24,099 nt of DNA from a virus. Taxonomy: Duplodnaviria; Heunggongvirae; Uroviricota; Caudoviricetes. The translations under genes were made by a program, and so were the position numbers. Shown piece after piece: positions 1-9,851 of the stretch (position 1 is the stretch's first letter; every line of letters starts with the position of its first letter). Location: IMG/VR virus record IMGVR_UViG_3300031963_000058, positions 1-24,099 of that record, one strand, 5' to 3'. The notes under the pieces are model-generated. The model saw only the letters and a list, made by a program, of their open reading frames with translations, did no database searches and was not told where the DNA came from.

Positions 1-126
1 GTCATCAGGCTCTTCTGGCACATCTGGCTCATCTGGTTCGAGTGGTTCAAGCGGGTCATCAGGCTCTTCTGGTACATCTGGCTCATCTGGTTCGAGTGGT
101 TCAAGCGGGTCATCAGGCTCTTCTGG
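1..126 (+). repeat. 54-bp tandem repeat (2 full copies plus a partial third) in the GXS coding tract
   Basis: gtcatcaggctcttctgg recurs at 1, 55 and 109. Confidence 0.85.
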
Positions 127-982
127 CTCATCTGGTTCGAGCGGTTCGTCAGGCTCTTCTGGTACTTCTGGCACATCCGGTAGGTCAGGATCTTCTGGTA
201 CATCAGGATCTTCTGGCTCTTCAGGTTCAAGTGGTTCATCAGGGTCTTCTGGCTCAAGCGGATCATCAGGTTCGAGTGGTACATCAGGCACATCCGGTAG
301 GTCAGGATCTTCTGGTACATCAGGATCTTCTGGCTCTTCAGGTTCAAGTGGTTCATCAGGGTCTTCTGGCTCAAGCGGATCATCAGGTTCGAGTGGAACA
401 TCAGGTACATCCGGTAGGTCGGGATCTTCTGGTACATCAGGATCTTCTGGCTCTTCAGGTTCAAGTGGTTCATCAGGGTCTTCTGGCTCAAGCGGATCAT
501 CAGGTTCGAGTGGAACATCTGGCACTTCGGGAACATCACCAGCACTTACAGGTATAACCTCAATATACCCAATTTCAACAGGAACAACAGGCTCTGCGGG
601 TTGGGGTATGATAACCAGATTTACTGCTGGTGAATCATTAGCGTTTGGTGATGTTGTATATATTGACGCAACACTTGGTCAATTTAAAAAAGCTGACGCA
701 GATACGGGCTCTACAGCTCCTGCAATAGCTTTATGTCTTGAAACAAGCTTAAGTAGTGGTGCAGCAGGAAACTTTTTGATGCACGGGTTTGTAACAAAAG
801 TGTCTTCAGGTGTTGGAGCATATGGTGGTCCTAATACTATTTGGTATTTAAGTACTACAGCAGGAAATATAACTACAACACCGCCATCAGCCAAAGATGA
901 CGTAGTACAGATAATTGGCGTAGCTTTAAGTGAATATACATTATATTTCCATCCACAATTAGTTTTCACTATATTATCATAA
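2..982 (+). CDS. 5'-truncated Gly-X-Ser collagen-like fibre protein with C-terminal capsid-cement/decoration-like (DUF2190-like) domain
   Basis: Frame +2 reads SSGSSGTSGSSG... without a stop, continues through GTSPALTGITSIYPISTGTTGSAGWG into the 608-982 ORF (MITRFTAGESLAFGDVVYI...KADAD) and ends at TAA 980-982. The C-terminal AGE-x-L-x-x-GDVVY...KADA pattern resembles cement/decoration domains (by eye). Confidence 0.85.
   Translation, partial: SSGSSGTSGSSGSSGSSGSSGSSGTSGSSGSSGSSGSSGSSGSSGSSGSSGSSGTSGTSGRSGSSGTSGSSGSSGSSGSSGSSGSSGSSGSSGTSGTSGRSGSSGTSGSSGSSGSSGSSGSSGSSGSSGSSGTSGTSGRSGSSGTSGSSGSSGSSGSSGSSGSSGSSGSSGTSGTSGTSPALTGITSIYPISTGTTGSAGWGMITRFTAGESLAFGDVVYIDATLGQFKKADADTGSTAPAIALCLETSLSSGAAGNFLMHGFVTKVSSGVGAYGGPNTIWYLSTTAGNITTTPPSAKDDVVQIIGVALSEYTLYFHPQLVFTILS
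174..524 (+). repeat. 117-bp (39-aa) tandem repeat, 3 near-identical copies
   Basis: catccggtaggtc recurs at 174, 291 and 408. Each unit encodes 13 G-X-S triplets, exactly one of them GRS. Only a few substitutions separate the copies. Confidence 0.9.
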
Positions 983-1019
983 AAAAAATGTGGCAGTTAA
1001 TTCTGCCACATTTTTTTTT
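981..1019. terminator. Bidirectional intrinsic terminator between convergent genes
   Basis: A8-TGTGGCAG-ttaatt-CTGCCACA-T9 is a perfect inverted repeat with a U-tract on both strands. It abuts or overlaps the stops at 980-982 (+) and 1018-1020 (-). Confidence 0.9.
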
Positions 1020-1383
1020 ATTTGTAAGATTTTTCTTCAACAAATAATGAGTTATATTTTATATTTATTTCTTTTTTTATAACGGATCTTTTGTCGTTTG
1101 TAATATAAACTTTTCTAGCTAAATCGATAAACTCATCATCGAATGATTTATCGATTTCTTTTTTTCGTATATGATCTTCAATATCCCACAAGCTTTTATT
1201 AATAATTAAAAGATTATAATAATCGTCATCACTGATTTTAAGCTCATTGAATACAATATCATGTAAATAACTAAATTCATTATTTACGTTATACAATTTA
1301 TTAACATCGGATATATTTTCTTTTTTTATTTGTAAAATAGATAACTTATCTACAATTTCTCCAATTGATACCTCAATTTTCAT
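1018..1383 (-). CDS. DUF6165-like protein
   Basis: The N-terminus MKIEVSIGEIVDKLSILQIK and the LWDIEDHIR...LARKVYITNDKRSVIKKEIN...EEKSY motifs match my recollection of DUF6165. It overlaps the upstream GT stop by 11 nt. Confidence 0.75.
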   Translation of the reverse strand: MKIEVSIGEIVDKLSILQIKKENISDVNKLYNVNNEFSYLHDIVFNELKISDDDYYNLLIINKSLWDIEDHIRKKEIDKSFDDEFIDLARKVYITNDKRSVIKKEINIKYNSLFVEEKSYK

Positions 1384-4300
1384 ACTTAAATATGTCTTTT
1401 TTTATTCTTTGAAACACCATATCTGGCGTTATAGATTTATGGCATTCAAATTGCCTAGGAGTATTTTTATGTTCTGGACACCAGTTCCAATCTGATTTGT
1501 CGAATTTAAATAATGGGTTATTCCAACAACTGTTACATACTGATTTATTAATAATTCTAGTACAATTTGATTTAAATTCTTGGTCCTCATCCGTGAAATT
1601 AGCGATCATAACAACATGTTTATCTAATGCCCAAGCAAGCCATGATAGACCGCTAGATAAACCGATTAAAAACTCACTATGATGAATCACATTCATAGTA
1701 TTTTCTATTGATGTATCGGATAAGTTTATAACCCCATTAATTTTAGACGCTTCTTTTGAGACAGAGATAACTTTATATCCGCAATTTTGAAGATACTCAC
1801 AAAGTATTTCCCAACCTCTAGGATAATTCCAATATTTTAGTTGGGCTGTAGAATCTGTTGCTATGGTAACGTATCTAGATTCAATAGGTCTTTTCCCCGG
1901 ATTAAATTTAATCCTTGGAGAAATTTCATGGTAATTTAATCCTAAAATGTTTGTTGCCACCTTTTGCAAGGGTATTATTTGAGGGTTTTCTGGGGCACTA
2001 TTATTATCATAATAATATCCTATGTTATACATCGCGTATAAGTCATAAACAATATCACCAGGAGTTACGAACTCAATTTCAGGGTAAACATCAACAAATA
2101 ATTTATTCCAAAATGTTGATACAATCAAATAACAATTGTGTTTTTTCTTAAATTCTAAGCAATATGGCATCCAAGCAATTGTATCGCCTAACGAGTTACT
2201 ATCGAATGCGATATAAACTCTTTCATTTTTTAATGATAATGTTTTTGAATATATAATTTTATCATCAATAGATACATTAGTTTTCCATTTTGTATAATAT
2301 TTTCGGTTAAGTCTTATCCAAGTATTTGTGGTGATATTTTCAGAATAAACAAGTGTGTTATTTTCATCAATAAATTCTACGTGATATGTGTTATTATCCT
2401 TTCCTTTTATTTCAAAATAAGGTTGACCAACAAATGATTGAGCTATATCTAATTTATATTTGGATTCTTTGTTTTTTAAATTTAGATATAAATTAACATG
2501 TTTTTCCGCAAAAGAATTCTGTTCATTAGTTGCTGTATATGAAAATAATTTTGAATTTACAATTTTTTCTAATTTATTTTTTGTGTCTAAAATATTATCA
2601 TCTATTGGTATAATATATTGTGAGTATGTGTCTAAATAAACATTTAGATCTCTTGCTAATATTTTCAATCCAAAAGATATAGCTTCTTTTAGAGTTATTG
2701 GGTTACACTCAAATGTTGAGTTAAATATTAAAACATCAGAAGCTGCCATAAATGCATGAACGTCATTTCTTTCACCCCATACAGTTATGTTCTTAGGTAA
2801 ATTTTCAACAATTGGGCCCCAATAGTCTTCAAAATTAGGTGCTAAGGAACCAATAGCATGAAAATGTAAATTGTTATTGTTTTCAAACAATTTTGCAATT
2901 TCTACGAATTCTTTTTGATTTTTACCTGGTGTCCAAATACCGACATTTAATACGTGTCTTACTTCAGGATCTAAATTTAAACTTAATTGCGCTTTTAATT
3001 TTTCAGCTTTTGTTTTTTTGAAATTTTCAATCGGATATTCAATTAACTCTAAAATTTCTTTTTCATCAGCAAAAGTTACATTTTTATGATATTTTGAGCA
3101 TAAAGCATATGCGTCAGGATGAAATTCTTTTGATTGTTTAGGATTAAATACAACATTATGGCATGTTTCGACAATATTCCAAGATCTGTCCTCAGAATAT
3201 AGTAGGTTAATTAAATCTCTTGGCACAGGATTAAATGAGTCAAAGCCTTCAATTGGTTCATCAATATGTACTACGTCTATATTATTATATTTAATAATAT
3301 CCAATAACTTGTATTTATTATCAATAGGTTCACCTAAATATCCTAAGGAATAAAACTTATCAGAATCGATCATAGTTTTTATCATATCTTTTTGCACTGA
3401 AAATGCATCGCCATAATTTGTATATTCAACAACAAAAATATTAAATTCGTCATTATAGTATTTTTTTATGGCCTCAATTCTTTTTAGTAGAAAAGCTGGC
3501 ATACCACCTGTTGATAAATGAGGGGCTAAATACAATATATTTGTTTTTTTTCCGCTATCTCGGTTTTTTATTTCATCAATTTTATTTATCATATCCATAA
3601 TAATATTTGGTCTTTTTTCACCATGTATAAAATACACAGAATTTTTCTGGGGAGGTAGTTTAAACCATTCTTGTATTTCGTTTTCAATACCTAAATAATT
3701 TTTGTTATCATTGATAATATCAATTCTATCTAACGATCCGTTAACATATATTAAAGGCAAACCCTTATCTATTTTATATTTCCATAATAAGCAGTTTAAT
3801 ACGGTTTCTTCGTTATAAGGGGCATAAATTGCATGGTTCCTAAATATTATATCCATTCCGCAAGTAATATACCATTCATTTAAAAATGGTATACTCTTCT
3901 GGCCTGATATATAATAACCAGATTGCCTATAACTTGTATTTAGCCTAAATGATTGATCAATATTCAATAATTCGCATAATTTGTGTTCAACGGTATTTTC
4001 TAAACCGTCTTCATGACCAATTTCGTTATATGCTAAAAAATCATAAATGCCTTTGGTAAAATAAGGAATATTTTCATTTTCTGGATATAAATCAAAAAAA
4101 ATGTCAATATTGTTGAATATAACTGAGTCGGCATCAATAAAGAATACTGTTTTAGCATAATTTTCTAAGGCATGTATTGTTATAAATGGTTTTTGGATTA
4201 ATATTGAATATATGTGAGGGTTTTCTCTTTTAATATAAAAATTAGATTCATCCAATCCTTTAATGTATAAATCATCATTATTTTTATGCCTTAAATGTAT

Positions 4301-4483
4301 ATTATACATTACTTCACAATATACGTCATTATTAGATGTTTCAAATTTTTTATTTATAGAATAAACTATTATCGGTAATTTAGAGAACTTCCTAATACTA
4401 GTTATAGTACATTCTATTACTGGAAAATAATTTTCGGTTGCATACAAAATATACGCTTTATCAAATTTAAGTTTATTATTCAT
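1373..4483 (-). CDS. Three-domain glycosyltransferase: GT-A (DxD) + GT4 + TibC/Aah-like (BAHT) protein O-heptosyltransferase
   Basis: aa ~1-305: FFIDADSV DxD motif and NEETVLN. aa ~310-670: ILYLAPHLSTGGMP...GERNDV...SDVLIFNSTFECNPITLKEA (GT4 E-x7-E). aa ~675-1036: beta-rich spacer, VYIAFDSNSLGDTIAW, IGLSSGLSWLAWA and CNSCWN...WCPEH...QFECHKSI. Confidence 0.85.
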   Translation of the reverse strand: MNNKLKFDKAYILYATENYFPVIECTITSIRKFSKLPIIVYSINKKFETSNNDVYCEVMYNIHLRHKNNDDLYIKGLDESNFYIKRENPHIYSILIQKPFITIHALENYAKTVFFIDADSVIFNNIDIFFDLYPENENIPYFTKGIYDFLAYNEIGHEDGLENTVEHKLCELLNIDQSFRLNTSYRQSGYYISGQKSIPFLNEWYITCGMDIIFRNHAIYAPYNEETVLNCLLWKYKIDKGLPLIYVNGSLDRIDIINDNKNYLGIENEIQEWFKLPPQKNSVYFIHGEKRPNIIMDMINKIDEIKNRDSGKKTNILYLAPHLSTGGMPAFLLKRIEAIKKYYNDEFNIFVVEYTNYGDAFSVQKDMIKTMIDSDKFYSLGYLGEPIDNKYKLLDIIKYNNIDVVHIDEPIEGFDSFNPVPRDLINLLYSEDRSWNIVETCHNVVFNPKQSKEFHPDAYALCSKYHKNVTFADEKEILELIEYPIENFKKTKAEKLKAQLSLNLDPEVRHVLNVGIWTPGKNQKEFVEIAKLFENNNNLHFHAIGSLAPNFEDYWGPIVENLPKNITVWGERNDVHAFMAASDVLIFNSTFECNPITLKEAISFGLKILARDLNVYLDTYSQYIIPIDDNILDTKNKLEKIVNSKLFSYTATNEQNSFAEKHVNLYLNLKNKESKYKLDIAQSFVGQPYFEIKGKDNNTYHVEFIDENNTLVYSENITTNTWIRLNRKYYTKWKTNVSIDDKIIYSKTLSLKNERVYIAFDSNSLGDTIAWMPYCLEFKKKHNCYLIVSTFWNKLFVDVYPEIEFVTPGDIVYDLYAMYNIGYYYDNNSAPENPQIIPLQKVATNILGLNYHEISPRIKFNPGKRPIESRYVTIATDSTAQLKYWNYPRGWEILCEYLQNCGYKVISVSKEASKINGVINLSDTSIENTMNVIHHSEFLIGLSSGLSWLAWALDKHVVMIANFTDEDQEFKSNCTRIINKSVCNSCWNNPLFKFDKSDWNWCPEHKNTPRQFECHKSITPDMVFQRIKKDIFKYEN

Positions 4484-5421
4484 ATGATTTTCATAATTGT
4501 TTCGTAAACATCAATTACCGATGGGTGGCATTCAAATTCAGGTTTATTTTCTAAGCAGCCAATTAATGGGGGAACACCATGTATTGTACCCCATTCTCTA
4601 ACACCATATTTCATGTCTGAAGCACAAAATATTCCACAAGGACCTGAGATATAATGGTATTTGTAATCTTGTGACATATATCTATATGGGGCTCTAAATT
4701 CGTTATTTATGGAGCTTCCGAGTTGAATTATTTCGGCATCTGTTGTTCCTGCTAAATGCAGCAGTCCTGAATCCATTGTTACAAAACAAGAAGATTTATC
4801 AATTAAGTGCCAGGTTTGCGATATATTACTTTTGTTTGATAAATCTAAAACCAAGTCTTGTTTTATGCTAAATATTTTTTTTGTAATGTGAAAAAATCCA
4901 TATTCCTCGGTGTTTTTACCTGTAATAACAACATTTATATTATTTCCGCATAATAAATTAACAAGATCGGCCCATTTGTCTTTATCCCAGGTTCTTGAGG
5001 GCCAATTTTCTGCGGGATGGATTAAAACGAATTTTTCTGGTAGTCCATCAATTGGTATATATTCATCGGGTTCATATTCTGTATACAAATCATCTTCAGA
5101 TAATTGAAAGCCAAGCGTCATAGCATGATATTGTCTTATATCACATACATTACTTTTAAATTCAACACCAAACTCATTTTTCTTACCAACATTATTGAAT
5201 GATGAATGATATATCTGTGTTGATTTTACATTTTCTATATTAATTGCATTTACATAATAAGCTTTTTCAACATTTCTGTTATTATGGAATAACTCAGGAT
5301 AATTCGTTATGACATATATTTTGGAACCATATGATTCTTTTAATTTCCTAATAACAGGGGTTGCTGATAGCGTATCACCTAAGCCTTTTGCTTCGGATAA
5401 ATCTAGGAATACTTTTTTCAT
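4480..5421 (-). CDS. GT9-family (heptosyltransferase-like) glycosyltransferase
   Basis: GLGDTLSATPVIRKLK, VLIHPAENWPSRTW and FVTMDSGLLHLAG are typical GT9 motifs. Its TGA overlaps the ATG of the 1036-aa gene (ATGA). Confidence 0.85.
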   Translation of the reverse strand: MKKVFLDLSEAKGLGDTLSATPVIRKLKESYGSKIYVITNYPELFHNNRNVEKAYYVNAINIENVKSTQIYHSSFNNVGKKNEFGVEFKSNVCDIRQYHAMTLGFQLSEDDLYTEYEPDEYIPIDGLPEKFVLIHPAENWPSRTWDKDKWADLVNLLCGNNINVVITGKNTEEYGFFHITKKIFSIKQDLVLDLSNKSNISQTWHLIDKSSCFVTMDSGLLHLAGTTDAEIIQLGSSINNEFRAPYRYMSQDYKYHYISGPCGIFCASDMKYGVREWGTIHGVPPLIGCLENKPEFECHPSVIDVYETIMKII

Positions 5422-5451
5422 TTTTTGTTAAAAAAATAATGTTTTTTAATT

Positions 5452-5459
5452 CAAAATTA
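5452..5459 (-). promoter_or_regulatory. Possible Bacteroidota -7 element (TAATTTTG) for the glycosyltransferase operon
   Basis: Matches TAnnTTTG 30 nt upstream of the 5421 ATG. No clear -33 element, and a chance match in AT-rich DNA is plausible. Confidence 0.3.
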
Positions 5460-5513
5460 AATAAATTAGCTTATTATTTTTCATTGATTTTATCAAAAAA
5501 ATTAAATTCTAGT

Positions 5514-5521
5514 TATTTATA
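5514..5521 (+). promoter_or_regulatory. TATTTATA motif, putative phage late promoter
   Basis: Intergenic, 16 nt upstream of the structural-module ATG at 5538. The same heptamer lies in three other intergenic regions. Its reverse complement is TATAAATA (T4 late consensus), facing the GT operon. Confidence 0.45.
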
Positions 5522-5537
5522 GTATAAAACATTATTC

Positions 5538-7328
5538 ATGGCTTGTCTATCTGGTGTAACTAATTCTAGCTCCTGGCAATATACAGATTGTTGCGGTTAT
5601 TTCCAAAGCGGATCTACTATTGGTACACCAATTTGTTTAAATGACGATTACTCATATTCTGGAATAACATTAACTGACATGAGTTGTAGTCCAGCCTGTG
5701 CTAGTTATCAATACAATTTTACGGATTGTTGTGATAGTGGCATAACATTTACAGTTAGTGGTATTCCGGCACAATTAGTTTCTAACTTTTATCACGTTAC
5801 TGTTTCAGGATATACTGGTTGCACCTATATAGATAATTTAGGTGGAGGAACAGTATATGATGGGACAACAGGTATATTTGTCCAGCAAGTTAGTTGTGAA
5901 GGCTGCATAACATGCCCTACACCTACACCAACACAAACGCCTACACCTACACCATCACCAACACCGACACCTACGTATATAGGGCCTGAATGTCCGATTA
6001 ACCAATATTGCTTAGATACTAATAATTATTTTGATAATGATGGGACCTATAATAAAGTTGGTAACTATAATGGATATGCGTATTATACTGGGGGTACAGA
6101 TCAAATAGGGTATTTATATAATACAGGGTATAAATGGTGTTTATCTGATAGTTTGGGTGGAGATTGTTTTTTATTTGGTAAAGTTCCTTGTTACGAAAAT
6201 TGCCCAGACATTTCATTATCTGAATTAACAGAAGGAGTTTGTGTTGTAACACCAACGCCAACACCTGCAATATGCGACGATTTTGATTTTAATGCGTATT
6301 TTAATTGTGAGATAATAACACCAACACCAACAGCAACAATAAGCCCTACACCGACATCTACTCCAACACCAACACCGACACCAACGCCGACATCTGATTG
6401 TTCGTTATCTAGTATTTCTTTAAGTGCTACAACATTACCTACACCAACACCTAGTGCGACACCTACGGCAACACCAATAACGGGTTATAGCGTTTGCTTT
6501 AGTGGTGATGTAACATATACTTTAGTTGATGATACATTTACAGATACTAAAACAAAAAAACTAGTTGATTGTATATCAGGAGACACATACTATGTTGTTG
6601 ACTCATTGGTATTTTCAGGATTATCAATTGAGACTGGAGTTACATTTAATTGTGTAATAAATGGCGTTTCAAAATGTGTAACATACGAGTCATTATCAAG
6701 TAATTCGTCAAATGCTATCCTCAATGACATAATATGGGTTTTAGGTCCAGGTTGTGATAACTGTTCAATAACTCCAACGCCAACACCTACACCGACAATA
6801 ACACCAACAAGCACGATATCACCAACACCTACATTATCTCCAACGGCAACAGGCCCAACTTCGACACCTGCTCCGGCACCAACAAGCACTCCTACGAATA
6901 CACCGACTTCAACACCAACACCAACACCGACAGACGTTATCCCAACATTATATTTAACAATGGACAATATATCTAGTTCATCGTTCCCAATATTTGTTGC
7001 GGAACTAAATACACCTATAACAGGTAACTTAACAGTTTCAACAGTTTTTGGTGATGGTTATGATGATATAGGTTGTACATCAGGTGTTGCTGGTGCTCAA
7101 TATAATAATCTGAGCAGTCTAGTAACATTTAACACTGGTAATTCTGGGATAGTATCTTTAACTCCAGACACTAAAACAGGTTATTGGAATTCAGGAGGAG
7201 GAGGCACTCCGATTAGATACACATTATATAATGTAAAAATAAATGGAACATCCATACCGTCTAGTGGGTCAACAATATTAATAGGATCTACTGTTGTGAC
7301 AATAGTTTGGGGAACATGTGTAAGTTAA
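5538..7328 (+). CDS. Cys-rich, Pro-Thr-linker modular protein, putative virion fibre/adhesin
   Basis: 596 aa with about 30 Cys (DCC, CxxC, CxxCxxC). Five (PT)n tracts separate beta-rich modules. No signal peptide; structural-gene context. Confidence 0.75.
   Translation: MACLSGVTNSSSWQYTDCCGYFQSGSTIGTPICLNDDYSYSGITLTDMSCSPACASYQYNFTDCCDSGITFTVSGIPAQLVSNFYHVTVSGYTGCTYIDNLGGGTVYDGTTGIFVQQVSCEGCITCPTPTPTQTPTPTPSPTPTPTYIGPECPINQYCLDTNNYFDNDGTYNKVGNYNGYAYYTGGTDQIGYLYNTGYKWCLSDSLGGDCFLFGKVPCYENCPDISLSELTEGVCVVTPTPTPAICDDFDFNAYFNCEIITPTPTATISPTPTSTPTPTPTPTPTSDCSLSSISLSATTLPTPTPSATPTATPITGYSVCFSGDVTYTLVDDTFTDTKTKKLVDCISGDTYYVVDSLVFSGLSIETGVTFNCVINGVSKCVTYESLSSNSSNAILNDIIWVLGPGCDNCSITPTPTPTPTITPTSTISPTPTLSPTATGPTSTPAPAPTSTPTNTPTSTPTPTPTDVIPTLYLTMDNISSSSFPIFVAELNTPITGNLTVSTVFGDGYDDIGCTSGVAGAQYNNLSSLVTFNTGNSGIVSLTPDTKTGYWNSGGGGTPIRYTLYNVKINGTSIPSSGSTILIGSTVVTIVWGTCVS
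6770..6932 (+). repeat. Longest Pro-Thr low-complexity coding tract (others at ~5915-5975, ~6250-6265, ~6318-6392, ~6430-6478)
   Basis: Encodes TPTPTPTPTITPTSTISPTPTLSPTATGPTSTPAPAPTSTPTNTPTSTPTPTPT using mixed acN/ccN codons. Confidence 0.85.
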
Positions 7329-7334
7329 AATAAT

Positions 7335-7553
7335 ATGAAAGAGATAACTATTACAGACTTAATCGGAACACAACCATACACAGTATATATTTGTGACAAT
7401 ACATATAACATGTGTGCATACGTTACAACAATAAATGATGCTGACATACCATATTCTTTTTTAGTTCCAGAACCATACAATAATTTAAGTGAAGTTGGTA
7501 TCCGGGTATTAGATGGGAATAATTGTGTGATAAAATCTTTAATTGTAATATAA
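7335..7553 (+). CDS. Small beta-rich hypothetical protein (72 aa), structural module
   Basis: ATG after an A-rich spacer; fills the gap between neighbouring genes. Contains the motif ITIT-x3-GT-x-PYTVY. Confidence 0.75.
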   Translation: MKEITITDLIGTQPYTVYICDNTYNMCAYVTTINDADIPYSFLVPEPYNNLSEVGIRVLDGNNCVIKSLIVI

Positions 7554-7558
7554 ATTAT

Positions 7559-8473
7559 ATGAATTTAAGTAGCTATGTTACAGGATGCTGTGATAATCAA
7601 ATATATAAAATAAAATCAGGAACAAAATACACTGTTGGTAATTTATTAATCAGCAAGCCAATTAATTTTTGTTACAAAGTTATTGAAGAGCCAGATATTA
7701 AGGTATATTTTACCATTCTAAATGATGATATACCTTTGGTTGATGCTGGATCTGGTATGACATGTTCATATTCAGGATGCTTGCCATGTCCAGGGCCAGA
7801 GCCAACGCCATTACCTCCACCTCCGATACCAGGGGTTTCATATAACGAATGTGAACCAATAACATTATTTCCATTAGGTGCTCAGTGTATTGCAATAAAT
7901 CCTGACGTTAATAGTCCTAATAGTGGAATATTATCTTTAGCAATAACTGGGGGTACAGCACCATATTATGTTGTATGGTCATTACCTAATAATACCACAG
8001 CTACTGGTACAACAATATATAACTTGAGTGCAGGTACATATAATGCCACAATTACTGATAAATATTATGACTTTATAACAACCGTTAGCTGCGAATTAAT
8101 AGAACCATTAGATTGTATTTTTTCTGGCTCTGTTAGTGAACTTAACTATTTGTTATTAGGTAGCGGAACAACTATCTTGTCATCATGTTCTGGTGAAACA
8201 AAAGAATACTGGTCAACAGTTTCACAAATATTTGAAATGCAAAGTGGGGATATCATTTATTATGATTATGAATTAACAATGCCTGTAGTTGAAGGGTATT
8301 ATTCAAACGGTATTTATTGGATACAAACAAATTCTTTGGGGTCTGTTTTAAATATTGGCACTTGTTCAATACCAACAATATCTCCTAGCCCGACACCAAC
8401 ATCAACACCAACACCTACAGTTAGTCCTACTCCGACATCAACACCAACACCTACGCCAACTCCGACACCATAA
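7559..8473 (+). CDS. Putative virion protein with SprB-like repeat, polyproline linker and C-terminal Pro-Thr tail
   Basis: ATG at 7559 is preferred over the overlapping track start at 7523. Contains SGILSLAITGGTAPYYVVWS...NLSAGTYNATITD (SprB-like) and PEPTPLPPPPIP, and ends ...PTPTPTPTP-stop. Confidence 0.75.
   Translation: MNLSSYVTGCCDNQIYKIKSGTKYTVGNLLISKPINFCYKVIEEPDIKVYFTILNDDIPLVDAGSGMTCSYSGCLPCPGPEPTPLPPPPIPGVSYNECEPITLFPLGAQCIAINPDVNSPNSGILSLAITGGTAPYYVVWSLPNNTTATGTTIYNLSAGTYNATITDKYYDFITTVSCELIEPLDCIFSGSVSELNYLLLGSGTTILSSCSGETKEYWSTVSQIFEMQSGDIIYYDYELTMPVVEGYYSNGIYWIQTNSLGSVLNIGTCSIPTISPSPTPTSTPTPTVSPTPTSTPTPTPTPTP
8384..8470 (+). repeat. C-terminal Pro-Thr/Ser coding tract with an internal duplicated SPTPTSTPTPT unit
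   Basis: Encodes SPSPTPTSTPTPTVSPTPTSTPTPTPTPTP directly before the TAA. Confidence 0.8.
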
Positions 8474-8474
8474 T

Positions 8475-9851
8475 ATGAATAGGATATTTAATATAACAAT
8501 AACAGCAGGAACTCCTGACGGAACTTTTTCGGTGTATTATGATAATATATCATCTAGTAGTTTGGCTACTAAATATTTAACAACAGAATTTGCTACAGGA
8601 TTAACTTTTTCGGAGTTAATAACAGGGGTTTTAGTTGTAGTCCCAGATACAAGTAAAAAAATATTATTATATAACAATTTATGTGGCTTGTATAATACAA
8701 TAAACATTTCAGATCCAATTAAAACATATCCTTGTTTTTGTTTATCAATTACAAATTCAAGAACAAATACGCTTAAAAGATATACATTTTGTTATAACGG
8801 CAACTCTTATAATGGTAAACCTGAGTATTTTACGACAATAAATCTGATAAACTATTATGCCAGATGGAATTTTATAAATCAATATTGGGAGCTAGACCCA
8901 ATACCTGATTATCCTAGCTTAATTATACGAAGCTCAGACCCGAAAGATACCCCATTGACAGGATGGTTTGTCTTTGGTAATAACGCTCAATTTTTTAGTT
9001 GTAAATCAACAGAGGGTCAATGTCAAAGTGCAGATAAGACATATAGTATAAAGTGTAATTTTAATAGTCCATCATGTGTAAACGAAAATGATGGGTCAAT
9101 AACTTCGGTGGCAACTGGTGGTAATCCTCCTTGGCAATATTCTTTAGATAATGTTAATTTTATTAATGTTGGGATATTTAATGGGTTATTTTCTGGGGCA
9201 TATACAGTCTATGCTAAAGATTCATCAGGTAATACAACTAGTTGTGACGTTACACTATCACCATCTCAACCAAAAACTTATGAATTACCGATGGTTGTTA
9301 CTGCTGGCCCGGATAGAGTTGGTACAACTATAAATGACTTAACAAAATACAAAATCGACTTTACTATTGATACATCATTATTGCCTGTAGGTGTTAATAT
9401 TGAGTTTGATTATGTTGTAACATACACTAAAACCTATTCTGAGCCTGGAACAGTTAGTTTTATAACAACAGGGCATAGTATTAGTGTGAATAATATTCAA
9501 AAAACAATGTCAATAATAGATAGTGGGCCATTCATCAATATATCTACGTCACAATGTAATCCGATACATGATGTATATGCTGCATATGATATATATTCTG
9601 CTACAGCCATAACAGGTAATAACACATCAAATATTGTTGGTTACATTGAATATACAATAGATATTGATCCTGGCTTCACATTCGATCCATTATGTTATAC
9701 AAGAGGTACGGTTGGGATAAATGCTTATTTGTCAAATATTACGGTGGATAATGATTGTGTTATAATTCAACCAACAACAATAATTGAGAGTACCACGCAA
9801 ATACCTCAACAAATACCGCAGCAAGACCCTAATAACCCACCTAGTGGCTAA
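8475..9851 (+). CDS. Putative virion/tail protein with SprB-like repeat
   Basis: True start is probably ATG 8475, 1 nt after the previous stop; the track extension from 8355 is a shadow of the PT tract. Contains PSCVNENDGSITSVATGGNPPWQYSLD...GLFSGAYTVYAKDSSG. Confidence 0.78.
   Translation: MNRIFNITITAGTPDGTFSVYYDNISSSSLATKYLTTEFATGLTFSELITGVLVVVPDTSKKILLYNNLCGLYNTINISDPIKTYPCFCLSITNSRTNTLKRYTFCYNGNSYNGKPEYFTTINLINYYARWNFINQYWELDPIPDYPSLIIRSSDPKDTPLTGWFVFGNNAQFFSCKSTEGQCQSADKTYSIKCNFNSPSCVNENDGSITSVATGGNPPWQYSLDNVNFINVGIFNGLFSGAYTVYAKDSSGNTTSCDVTLSPSQPKTYELPMVVTAGPDRVGTTINDLTKYKIDFTIDTSLLPVGVNIEFDYVVTYTKTYSEPGTVSFITTGHSISVNNIQKTMSIIDSGPFINISTSQCNPIHDVYAAYDIYSATAITGNNTSNIVGYIEYTIDIDPGFTFDPLCYTRGTVGINAYLSNITVDNDCVIIQPTTIIESTTQIPQQIPQQDPNNPPSG

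Follow-up and report, generated by a model that had tools for sequence, protein, structure and literature searches.

What does a phage do with a block of glycosyltransferase genes that is wedged between a gene for a serine-rich fibre and a run of genes with long Pro-Thr tracts? The question is raised by a stretch of 24,099 nucleotides (here called the window) of the IMG/VR record IMGVR_UViG_3300031963_000058. The window is the final 24 kb of a 91.7-kb viral contig, with its start 85 nt from the end of the record, and it stems from an uncultured freshwater jumbo phage. Three of its genes encode a GT9-like transferase (P0002), a fusion of three transferase domains (P0001) and a DUF6165 protein (P0003). 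A first reading, made from the letters alone and referred to here as the sequence-only reading, had proposed that these genes build an O-glycan on the Ser/Thr-rich products of the genes on both sides, with an initiating enzyme of the BAHT family, whose members TibC and Aah modify proteins in Escherichia coli. We examined this proposal by domain searches, structure prediction and comparison across viral contigs. On this evidence we think it probable, though well short of settled, that the operon encodes a system of the phage's own for the O-glycosylation of proteins in the cytoplasm, with the convergent, proline-free Gly-(Ser/Thr)-Ser fibre as its main substrate.

Results

The C-terminal part of P0001 (residues 698 to 1029) matches the model TIGR04414 (hepto_Aah_TibC) with 307.2 bits against a cut-off of 200 (E = 1.4e-91). 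It also matches the TibC structure 4RAP over TibC residues 40 to 379 (E = 1.8e-55), and the earlier suggestion of a BAHT-type O-glycosyltransferase fused to two further transferase domains is thereby borne out. The residues that are essential in TibC are the catalytic base Asp110, the donor contacts Thr226, Lys230 and Trp305, and the four iron-finger cysteines Cys339, Cys342, Cys358 and Cys370 (PMC4358343). Their equivalents in P0001 are Asp767, Thr879, Lys883 and Trp948, with Thr879 and Lys883 at the phosphate site, and Cys983, Cys986, Cys1002 and Cys1014. We aligned 57 non-identical phage copies of the domain with Aah (plasmid encoded, beside AIDA-I) and a Paraburkholderia enzyme; the catalytic Asp and the Thr, Lys and Trp are invariant in all 57 phage copies, and all copies keep the four cysteines, for which iron binding is predicted only. 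At the position of TibC Pro300, which selects between D,D- and L,D-heptose, P0001 has Ser943, in agreement with Ser294 of AAH (PMC4358343). Judged by its score and its catalytic residues, the P0001 domain is a true member of the BAHT family.

The operon and the fibre gene are placed tail to tail. The fibre gene contains 59 uninterrupted G-X-Y triplets (nt 8 to 538), exactly the number that the sequence-only reading had estimated for a Gly-X-Ser fibre, with Ser at Y in 59 of 59 triplets and Ser (42), Thr (14) or Arg (3) at X; on the whole contig, 69 triplets of the gene are seen. PF01391 (Collagen) is matched with 89.9 bits, and a triple helix formed by such a proline-free G-S-S chain is a prediction only. 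The domain that follows the repeat belongs to a family of 5419 representative clusters (E <= 1e-3), in which it stands mostly at the C terminus of proteins of 120 to ~1400 aa. PF09956 (Phage_cement_2) is matched by 21 of 30 aligned family members, the window copy alone reaching only E = 0.13, and the family profile matches residues 130 to 226 of gp82 of cyanophage A-1(L) (PDB 8keg; E = 1.5e-8), of which gp82C is the trimeric bead from which the neck fibre is built (PMC10966104). Most likely, then, the gene encodes a trimeric, virion-attached fibre, the N terminus of which is missing from the contig. The sequence-only reading had placed the substrates on the capsid and tail fibres, and this part did not hold: no capsid or tail gene was identified in the window, and the end domain of the fibre resembles a neck-fibre bead.

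Close relatives of the phage BAHT domain were found on 161 viral contigs of the 2.9 million in the collection, which is a pattern-limited count. ORFs (open reading frames) at these loci were called by a simple longest-ORF script; many of the contigs are fragments, and the loci are not phylogenetically independent. A collagen-like ORF, defined as one with at least 15 triplets and counted within 10 kb of the BAHT gene, was present at 33 of 55 non-identical viral loci, and these ORFs reach 3192 aa and more than 900 triplets. In nearly all linked collagens X is mainly Thr or Ser (commonly a fraction of 0.7 to 0.97), and Y is mainly Ser. The linkage is also directional, with 50 collagen-like ORFs among 368 located downstream of the enzyme and only 2 among 449 located upstream. 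On contigs of 215, 196, 177 and 109 kb, every match to the Collagen family lies near the BAHT gene (adjacent to it in three and within ~10 kb on the 109-kb contig). The C-terminal domain of the window's fibre recurs at one other locus only, so it is the repeats and not the end domains that travel with the enzyme.

The enzyme itself is variable. A GT4 domain accompanies BAHT at 77 of 80 loci, GT-A at 40 and a small GT9 protein at 24; DUF6165 adjoins the enzyme at 43 and is fused behind the BAHT domain at two (L032 and L035), and the order of the domains shifts. The pairing with collagen-like genes is kept across enzymes of two to four domains with 48 to 63% identity and hence persists through much rearrangement. 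The ORFs at L032 and L035 are 1599 and 1585 aa long, and the domain orders include GT4-GT-A-BAHT-(~240 aa)-DUF6165. Some versions of the enzyme begin with a motif that is like that of S-adenosylmethionine-dependent methyltransferases (L205, 2717-6067).

The linkage was approached from the opposite side as well, with viral records picked only by the DNA pattern (GGN WCN WSN)x6, of which 43 were among the matches listed. TIGR04414 was matched in 12 of these 43 records, in 10 of them above the cut-off. Even if BAHT genes had been undercounted a hundredfold in the 2.9-million-contig collection, this enrichment would be at least 50-fold. Comparative genomics thus links the BAHT clade closely to Gly-(Thr/Ser)-Ser collagen-like fibre genes.

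The assignments made earlier for the remaining parts of the operon (a GT9-like protein, a triple transferase with a TibC/Aah-like domain and a DUF6165-like protein) were confirmed by hidden Markov model searches (PF01075, PF00534, TIGR04414 and PF19662), while PHROGs held no family for any of the three proteins. Within P0001, PF00534 is matched over residues 503 to 622 (37.5 bits, cut-off 26.4) by a GT4 domain with the motif E592-x7-E600. The N-terminal domain has no Pfam match. Its model (pLDDT, the predicted local distance difference test score, 88) gave Foldseek hits to GT6, GT24 and WbbM with E values of ~1e-7 but modest template modelling scores of 0.45 to 0.5, an atlas search pointed to GT8, and D117-x-D119 is invariant in the alignment. 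On the basis of the predicted fold, this domain may be described as a GT-A transferase nearest to the retaining GT6/GT24/GT8-type enzymes.

P0002 matches PF01075 (Glyco_transf_9) with 55 bits (cut-off 22) and the WaaF structure 1PSW with E = 4.5e-4; it has a GLGD16 motif and is without the N-terminal beta-barrel of BAHT enzymes. Four conserved cysteines (C262, C266, C289 and C298; Cx3C...C...C) form a cluster that closes with FECH, the motif with which the BAHT finger ends as well. This resemblance to the BAHT iron finger raises the possibility that P0002 represents a second lineage of metal-finger transferases.

P0003 matches PF19662 (DUF6165) with 32.8 bits (cut-off 27), and its model is a four-helix bundle (pLDDT 90). 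Entries of the AlphaFold database show this fold in fusion with a GT9-family protein, with FkbM methyltransferases and with TPR proteins, and DUF6165 is probably an accessory module of GT9-type transferases. The P0003 alignment has 33 invariant positions, mostly charged or polar, which suggests a ligand-binding or catalytic role rather than that of a mere scaffold. A Foldseek search of the PDB with the model returned generic helical bundles only, none at E <= 0.001, and the idea that DUF6165 is a MazG-like all-alpha pyrophosphatase found no support in the structure searches. The fold occurs also in giant-virus and lancelet entries of the AlphaFold database.

All long ORFs in the window are on the plus strand except for one minus-strand block (1018-5421), in keeping with what the sequence-only reading had noted. 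The gene ends in this block overlap by 4 nt (4480-4483) and by 11 nt (1373-1383), and the three genes are a translationally coupled operon. Between the operon and the fibre gene lies a hairpin with the arms AAAAAAAATGTGGCAG and CTGCCACATTTTTTTT (981-1018). To judge by its sequence, it looks like a bidirectional intrinsic terminator common to the two convergent units. At the other end of the operon, the region that separates it from the first Pro-Thr gene probably holds putative promoters. The coordinates of all features are collected in Table 1.

Table 1. Features of the window at and around the transferase operon
Feature	Coordinates	Strand	Evidence or remark
Collagen-like gene, 5' end cut by contig end	2-982	+	PF01391
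Proline-free collagen-like repeat, proposed acceptor region	2-538	+	PF01391
C-terminal globular domain of fibre, ~140 residues	560-982	+	Family profile
Hairpin, perfect 16 bp, flanked by A8 and T-runs	981-1018	.	Exactly between two convergent stop codons
P0003, DUF6165 protein, 121 aa, last operon gene	1018-1383	-	PF19662
P0001, 1036-aa fusion of GT-A, GT4 and BAHT domains	1373-4483	-	PF00534, TIGR04414
BAHT (TibC/Aah-type) domain, P0001 residues 698-1029	1397-2392	-	TIGR04414, TibC alignment
GT4 (GT-B, Glycos_transf_1) domain, P0001 ~residues 320-690	2414-3526	-	PF00534, E-x7-E motif
N-terminal GT-A domain, P0001 ~residues 1-310	3554-4483	-	Predicted fold, DxD motif
P0002, GT9-like transferase, 313 aa, first operon gene	4480-5421	-	PF01075
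AT-rich divergent intergenic region between operon and first Pro-Thr gene	5422-5537	.	Sequence
Cys-rich protein, 596 aa, eight Pro-Thr linkers	5538-7328	+	Eight P/T/S runs of 6-18 residues, 30 Cys
304-aa protein, SprB-like module, C-terminal Pro-Thr tail	7559-8473	+	Terminal runs of 13 and 16 residues, 12 Cys
SprB-repeat protein, 458 aa	8475-9851	+	PF13573, 30.6 bits, cut-off 28

The Pro-Thr tracts that had been described in the flanking genes are present (5538-7328 and 7559-8473). The sequence-only reading had further asked whether the operon co-occurs across phages with Ser/Thr-rich genes; the answer is positive for the collagen-like fibre, as described above, and negative for the Pro-Thr genes. 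ORFs with a P/T/S run (at least 8 residues of Pro, Thr or Ser, of which at least 3 are Pro) were not enriched near the enzyme at the 55 loci, where they made up 2 to 3% of ORFs compared with 2.3% (8 of 341) in a complete 322-kb relative. By distance bin the values were 0 to 5% with no peak near the enzyme (the sparsest outer bin gave 7.7%, 1 of 13). Any such ORF was found at 11 of 55 loci, and homologues of the two Pro-Thr proteins themselves at 1 to 3 of 80 loci. Near their N termini, the two proteins have small modules in common that centre on two adjacent cysteines (TDCCGYFQSG, TDCCDSG and TGCCDNQ are examples); neither has a signal peptide or belongs to a known family. Atlas searches with the 596-aa Pro-Thr protein and with a 735-aa protein returned unnamed phage clusters only. 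For the SprB-repeat gene, the ORF list gives 8355-9851, but the first part of this ORF reads through the Pro-Thr repeat of the gene before it in a different frame. The gene almost certainly starts with the ATG at 8475, one base past the upstream stop codon.

The phage setting of the operon is evident from the window, which encodes a primase, an exonuclease, SbcCD, a RuvC-like protein and a sigma factor. CheckV estimates the 91.7-kb record to be 31% complete, which implies a genome of ~300 kb. Beyond the window, the same contig carries ten tandem paralogues of ~300 aa and about fifty of ~105 aa (window-oriented positions ~43,300-52,700 and 75,300-91,600).

No donor-synthesis gene was found near the enzyme when related phage records were searched for gmhA, NTP_transferase and Epimerase, and five records had neither gmhA nor an NTP-transferase; the donor must therefore be made by the host. 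A scan of 185,579 species genomes gave two matches only, on contigs of metagenome-assembled genomes (MAGs) labelled Sediminibacterium and Bacteroides. Both contigs are phage-like, with lysozyme-like and fibre-like neighbouring ORFs, and one has a collagen-like gene. Enzymes that resemble GmhA and RfaE, with scores that approach or exceed the curated cut-offs, are encoded by the two Bacteroidota MAGs, so that ADP-heptose from such a host is plausible. For a Bacteroidota host there are hints only, namely the SprB repeats, which are a weak one, and these two MAG-binned contigs. None of 400 other Bacteroidota genomes that were sampled yielded the phage BAHT clade, which hence appears to be phage borne.

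Discussion

The data presented here place a bona fide BAHT domain next to a collagen-like gene in one phage and tie the two together in many others. Going beyond the observed domain identities, catalytic residues, gene order and enzyme-fibre linkage, we infer an acceptor, a sugar, an order of action and a role for the system, which may be pictured as follows. Late in infection, the BAHT domain of P0001 would start the glycan by transferring a sugar to the fibre, with a nucleotide sugar made by the host as the donor and Asp767 as the base. The acceptor hydroxyl would be that of the invariant Ser of each triplet and perhaps also that of the preceding Ser or Thr. The GT4 and GT-A domains of the fusion, together with the separate P0002, would then extend or diversify the glycan, with DUF6165 serving as an accessory module to GT9-type enzymes. 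The densely glycosylated stalk, together with the C-terminal trimeric bead domain, would yield a virion-attached fibre of the neck or whisker type. By analogy with glycosylated Thr-rich collagens, the sugars probably stabilize a triple helix in which both proline and hydroxyproline are missing. They probably also shield the surface of the fibre or tune it.

Several observations speak against this picture and have to be set beside it. All the support for it is co-location plus homology. TibC Arg286 contacts adenine N1, a contact on which the use of ADP-sugars is based, and an R286A exchange abolished or largely diminished activity (PMC4358343); in P0001 this position is Thr929, and across the 57 phage copies it is Thr in 51, Ala in 3, Val in 2 and Ser in 1 but never Arg, which Aah and the Paraburkholderia enzyme retain. 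The beta-hairpin thumb of TibC (Phe265/Val266), which connects dimers into a dodecamer ring (PMC4358343), coincides with a 10-residue deletion in every phage copy displayed. With both Arg286 and the thumb missing, the donor, the oligomer state and the handling of the substrate may all differ from those of TibC. Because the adenine contact is lost, heptose is not secured as the transferred sugar, and the two changes hint that the phage branch may use a different nucleotide-sugar or assembly state. Known BAHT enzymes, moreover, modify serine in the beta-helical repeats of autotransporters, whereas the phage neighbour is a collagen-like G-S/T-S fibre: Aah lies beside AIDA-I and the Paraburkholderia enzyme beside an AIDA-repeat protein, but the phage enzyme lies beside a collagen-like gene. 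By alignment and gene context, the P0001 domain thus departs from its family in three features (the Arg286 contact, the thumb and the autotransporter neighbour), and since it is nevertheless a family member, we regard it as a phage branch in its own right, with putative substrates of a new class.

The linkage is not without gaps either. No collagen gene was present in the available DNA at 22 of the 55 loci, many of which are on short or cut contigs, and in the complete 322-kb genome only one of three collagen sites is near the BAHT gene, the other two being distant. In the reverse test, 31 of the 43 GTS-repeat records among the matches listed had no BAHT gene, including three that are 84 to 98% complete, which implies that the enzyme is not obligatory for such fibres. 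In records of this kind, among them the nearly complete G013, G023 and G027, the fibres either do without the enzyme or are served by another transferase.

Could the enzymes have other phage proteins as their substrates, either in place of the fibre or in addition to it? The Pro-Thr/Cys-rich neighbours at 5538-8473, put forward by the sequence-only reading, would be candidates. In enzymes that bacteria and fungi secrete, Pro-Thr linkers are well-known places of O-glycosylation. Both genes on the 91.7-kb contig that have P/T/S runs of 7 or more residues directly adjoin the operon, in divergent orientation, and the closest architectural relative, at locus L016, retains the same neighbours. Given that P/T/S-run ORFs are not enriched near the enzyme and that the two proteins are so rarely found at the other loci, we nonetheless regard this explanation as unlikely, although in the present phage the two proteins may serve as additional substrates. 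It is more improbable still, in our view, that the operon remodels the host envelope (the core of lipopolysaccharide [LPS], the capsule or a host surface protein), for instance to block superinfection in the manner of prophage GT9- or Gtr-type transferases. GT9 is chiefly a family of LPS heptosyltransferases, whose models P0002 matches weakly, and GT4 and GT-A enzymes often build envelope glycans. The best-scoring domain, however, belongs to the protein-specific BAHT family, above the equivalog cut-off, and the operon holds no flippase, ligase, lipid-carrier or membrane component. Remodelling of LPS would also leave the directional linkage to G-T/S-S fibre genes unexplained, and the absence of the clade from the sampled Bacteroidota genomes speaks for a phage-borne gene and not for a borrowed envelope gene.

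Finally, the adjacency might mean no more than that both genes reside in one hypervariable accessory fibre island, with the target of the enzyme being unrelated, such as DNA or a small molecule. In aquatic phages, the fibre regions are hot spots of recombination in which accessory genes gather (PMC10202952), and the many GTS-repeat records without BAHT noted above would fit such a scenario. We hold there to be little chance of this, as it accounts neither for the strong orientation bias nor for a pairing that survives changes in domain number and sequence, and the chemistry of the repeat is kept while the end domains of the fibres differ. DNA glycosylation in particular was rejected on the ground that the family of the best-scoring domain is specific for proteins.

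We therefore return to the fibre as the main substrate. A bolder form of this proposal can be offered only tentatively, being in our estimate slightly more apt to fail than to hold: a re-tooled, phage-specific TibC/Aah branch, with no thumb, an altered nucleotide pocket and fusions to transferases and DUF6165, may lay a dense multi-sugar O-glycan on every triplet, thereby replacing hydroxyproline in the triple helix and setting the surface chemistry of the fibre. If the proposal is true, phage-particle glycosylation would gain a second system, unrelated to the first and abundant in the environment, being found on hundreds of freshwater phage contigs, and the BAHT family would gain a new substrate class. 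The proposal would also explain the stability of proline-free collagen-like fibres, give DUF6165 a functional context and offer an enzyme with its acceptor as a compact pair for protein glycosylation that is dense and encoded by repeats. The change from Arg286 to Thr, in turn, renders donor specificity in the BAHT family directly testable. Our search of the literature found no paper that describes a BAHT-collagen pairing in phages.

Collagens with comparable repeats are known from other settings. BclA of the Bacillus anthracis exosporium, the cuticle collagen of vent worms and the fibril collagens of Mimivirus have G-X-Thr/Ser repeats with little or no hydroxyproline, and O-linked sugars coat and stabilize their helices. 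These are cellular or giant-virus systems and not tailed phages, and they employ other enzymes, with no BAHT among them. To our knowledge, glycosylation of phage particles has been documented only in a few actinobacteriophages. In mycobacteriophages, phage-encoded glycosyltransferases modify the structural proteins of the phage itself, and it is the tails at the C termini of the capsid and tail-tube subunits that bear the glycans (Freeman et al. 2023, related in PMC12619734). As far as that account goes, the enzymes there are unrelated to BAHT; here, by comparison, the putative acceptor is a collagen-like fibre that is known from its sequence alone. The neck fibre of A-1(L) (gp82/gp81/gp80; PDB 8KEG; PMC10966104) shares with our fibre the family of the gp82C bead, but it is made of bead trimers without collagen repeats, and no glycosylation has been reported for it.

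The closest parallels are the pairs TibC/TibA and Aah/AIDA-I of E. coli (PDB 4RAP and 4RB4; PMC4358343). They belong to the same family as the phage domain and share with it the catalytic Asp, the phosphate-site Thr and Lys, the sugar-contacting Trp and the four-cysteine finger, and their partner proteins are hyperglycosylated on serine in the cytoplasm (PMC4358343). The phage domain differs from them in the Thr at the position of Arg286 and the deleted thumb, in being fused behind GT-A and GT4 domains, and in being accompanied by a GT9-like enzyme and DUF6165. What the phage and the E. coli systems have in common at the level of the genome is that the gene for the enzyme lies beside a gene for a long, repetitive, Ser-rich fibrous surface protein.

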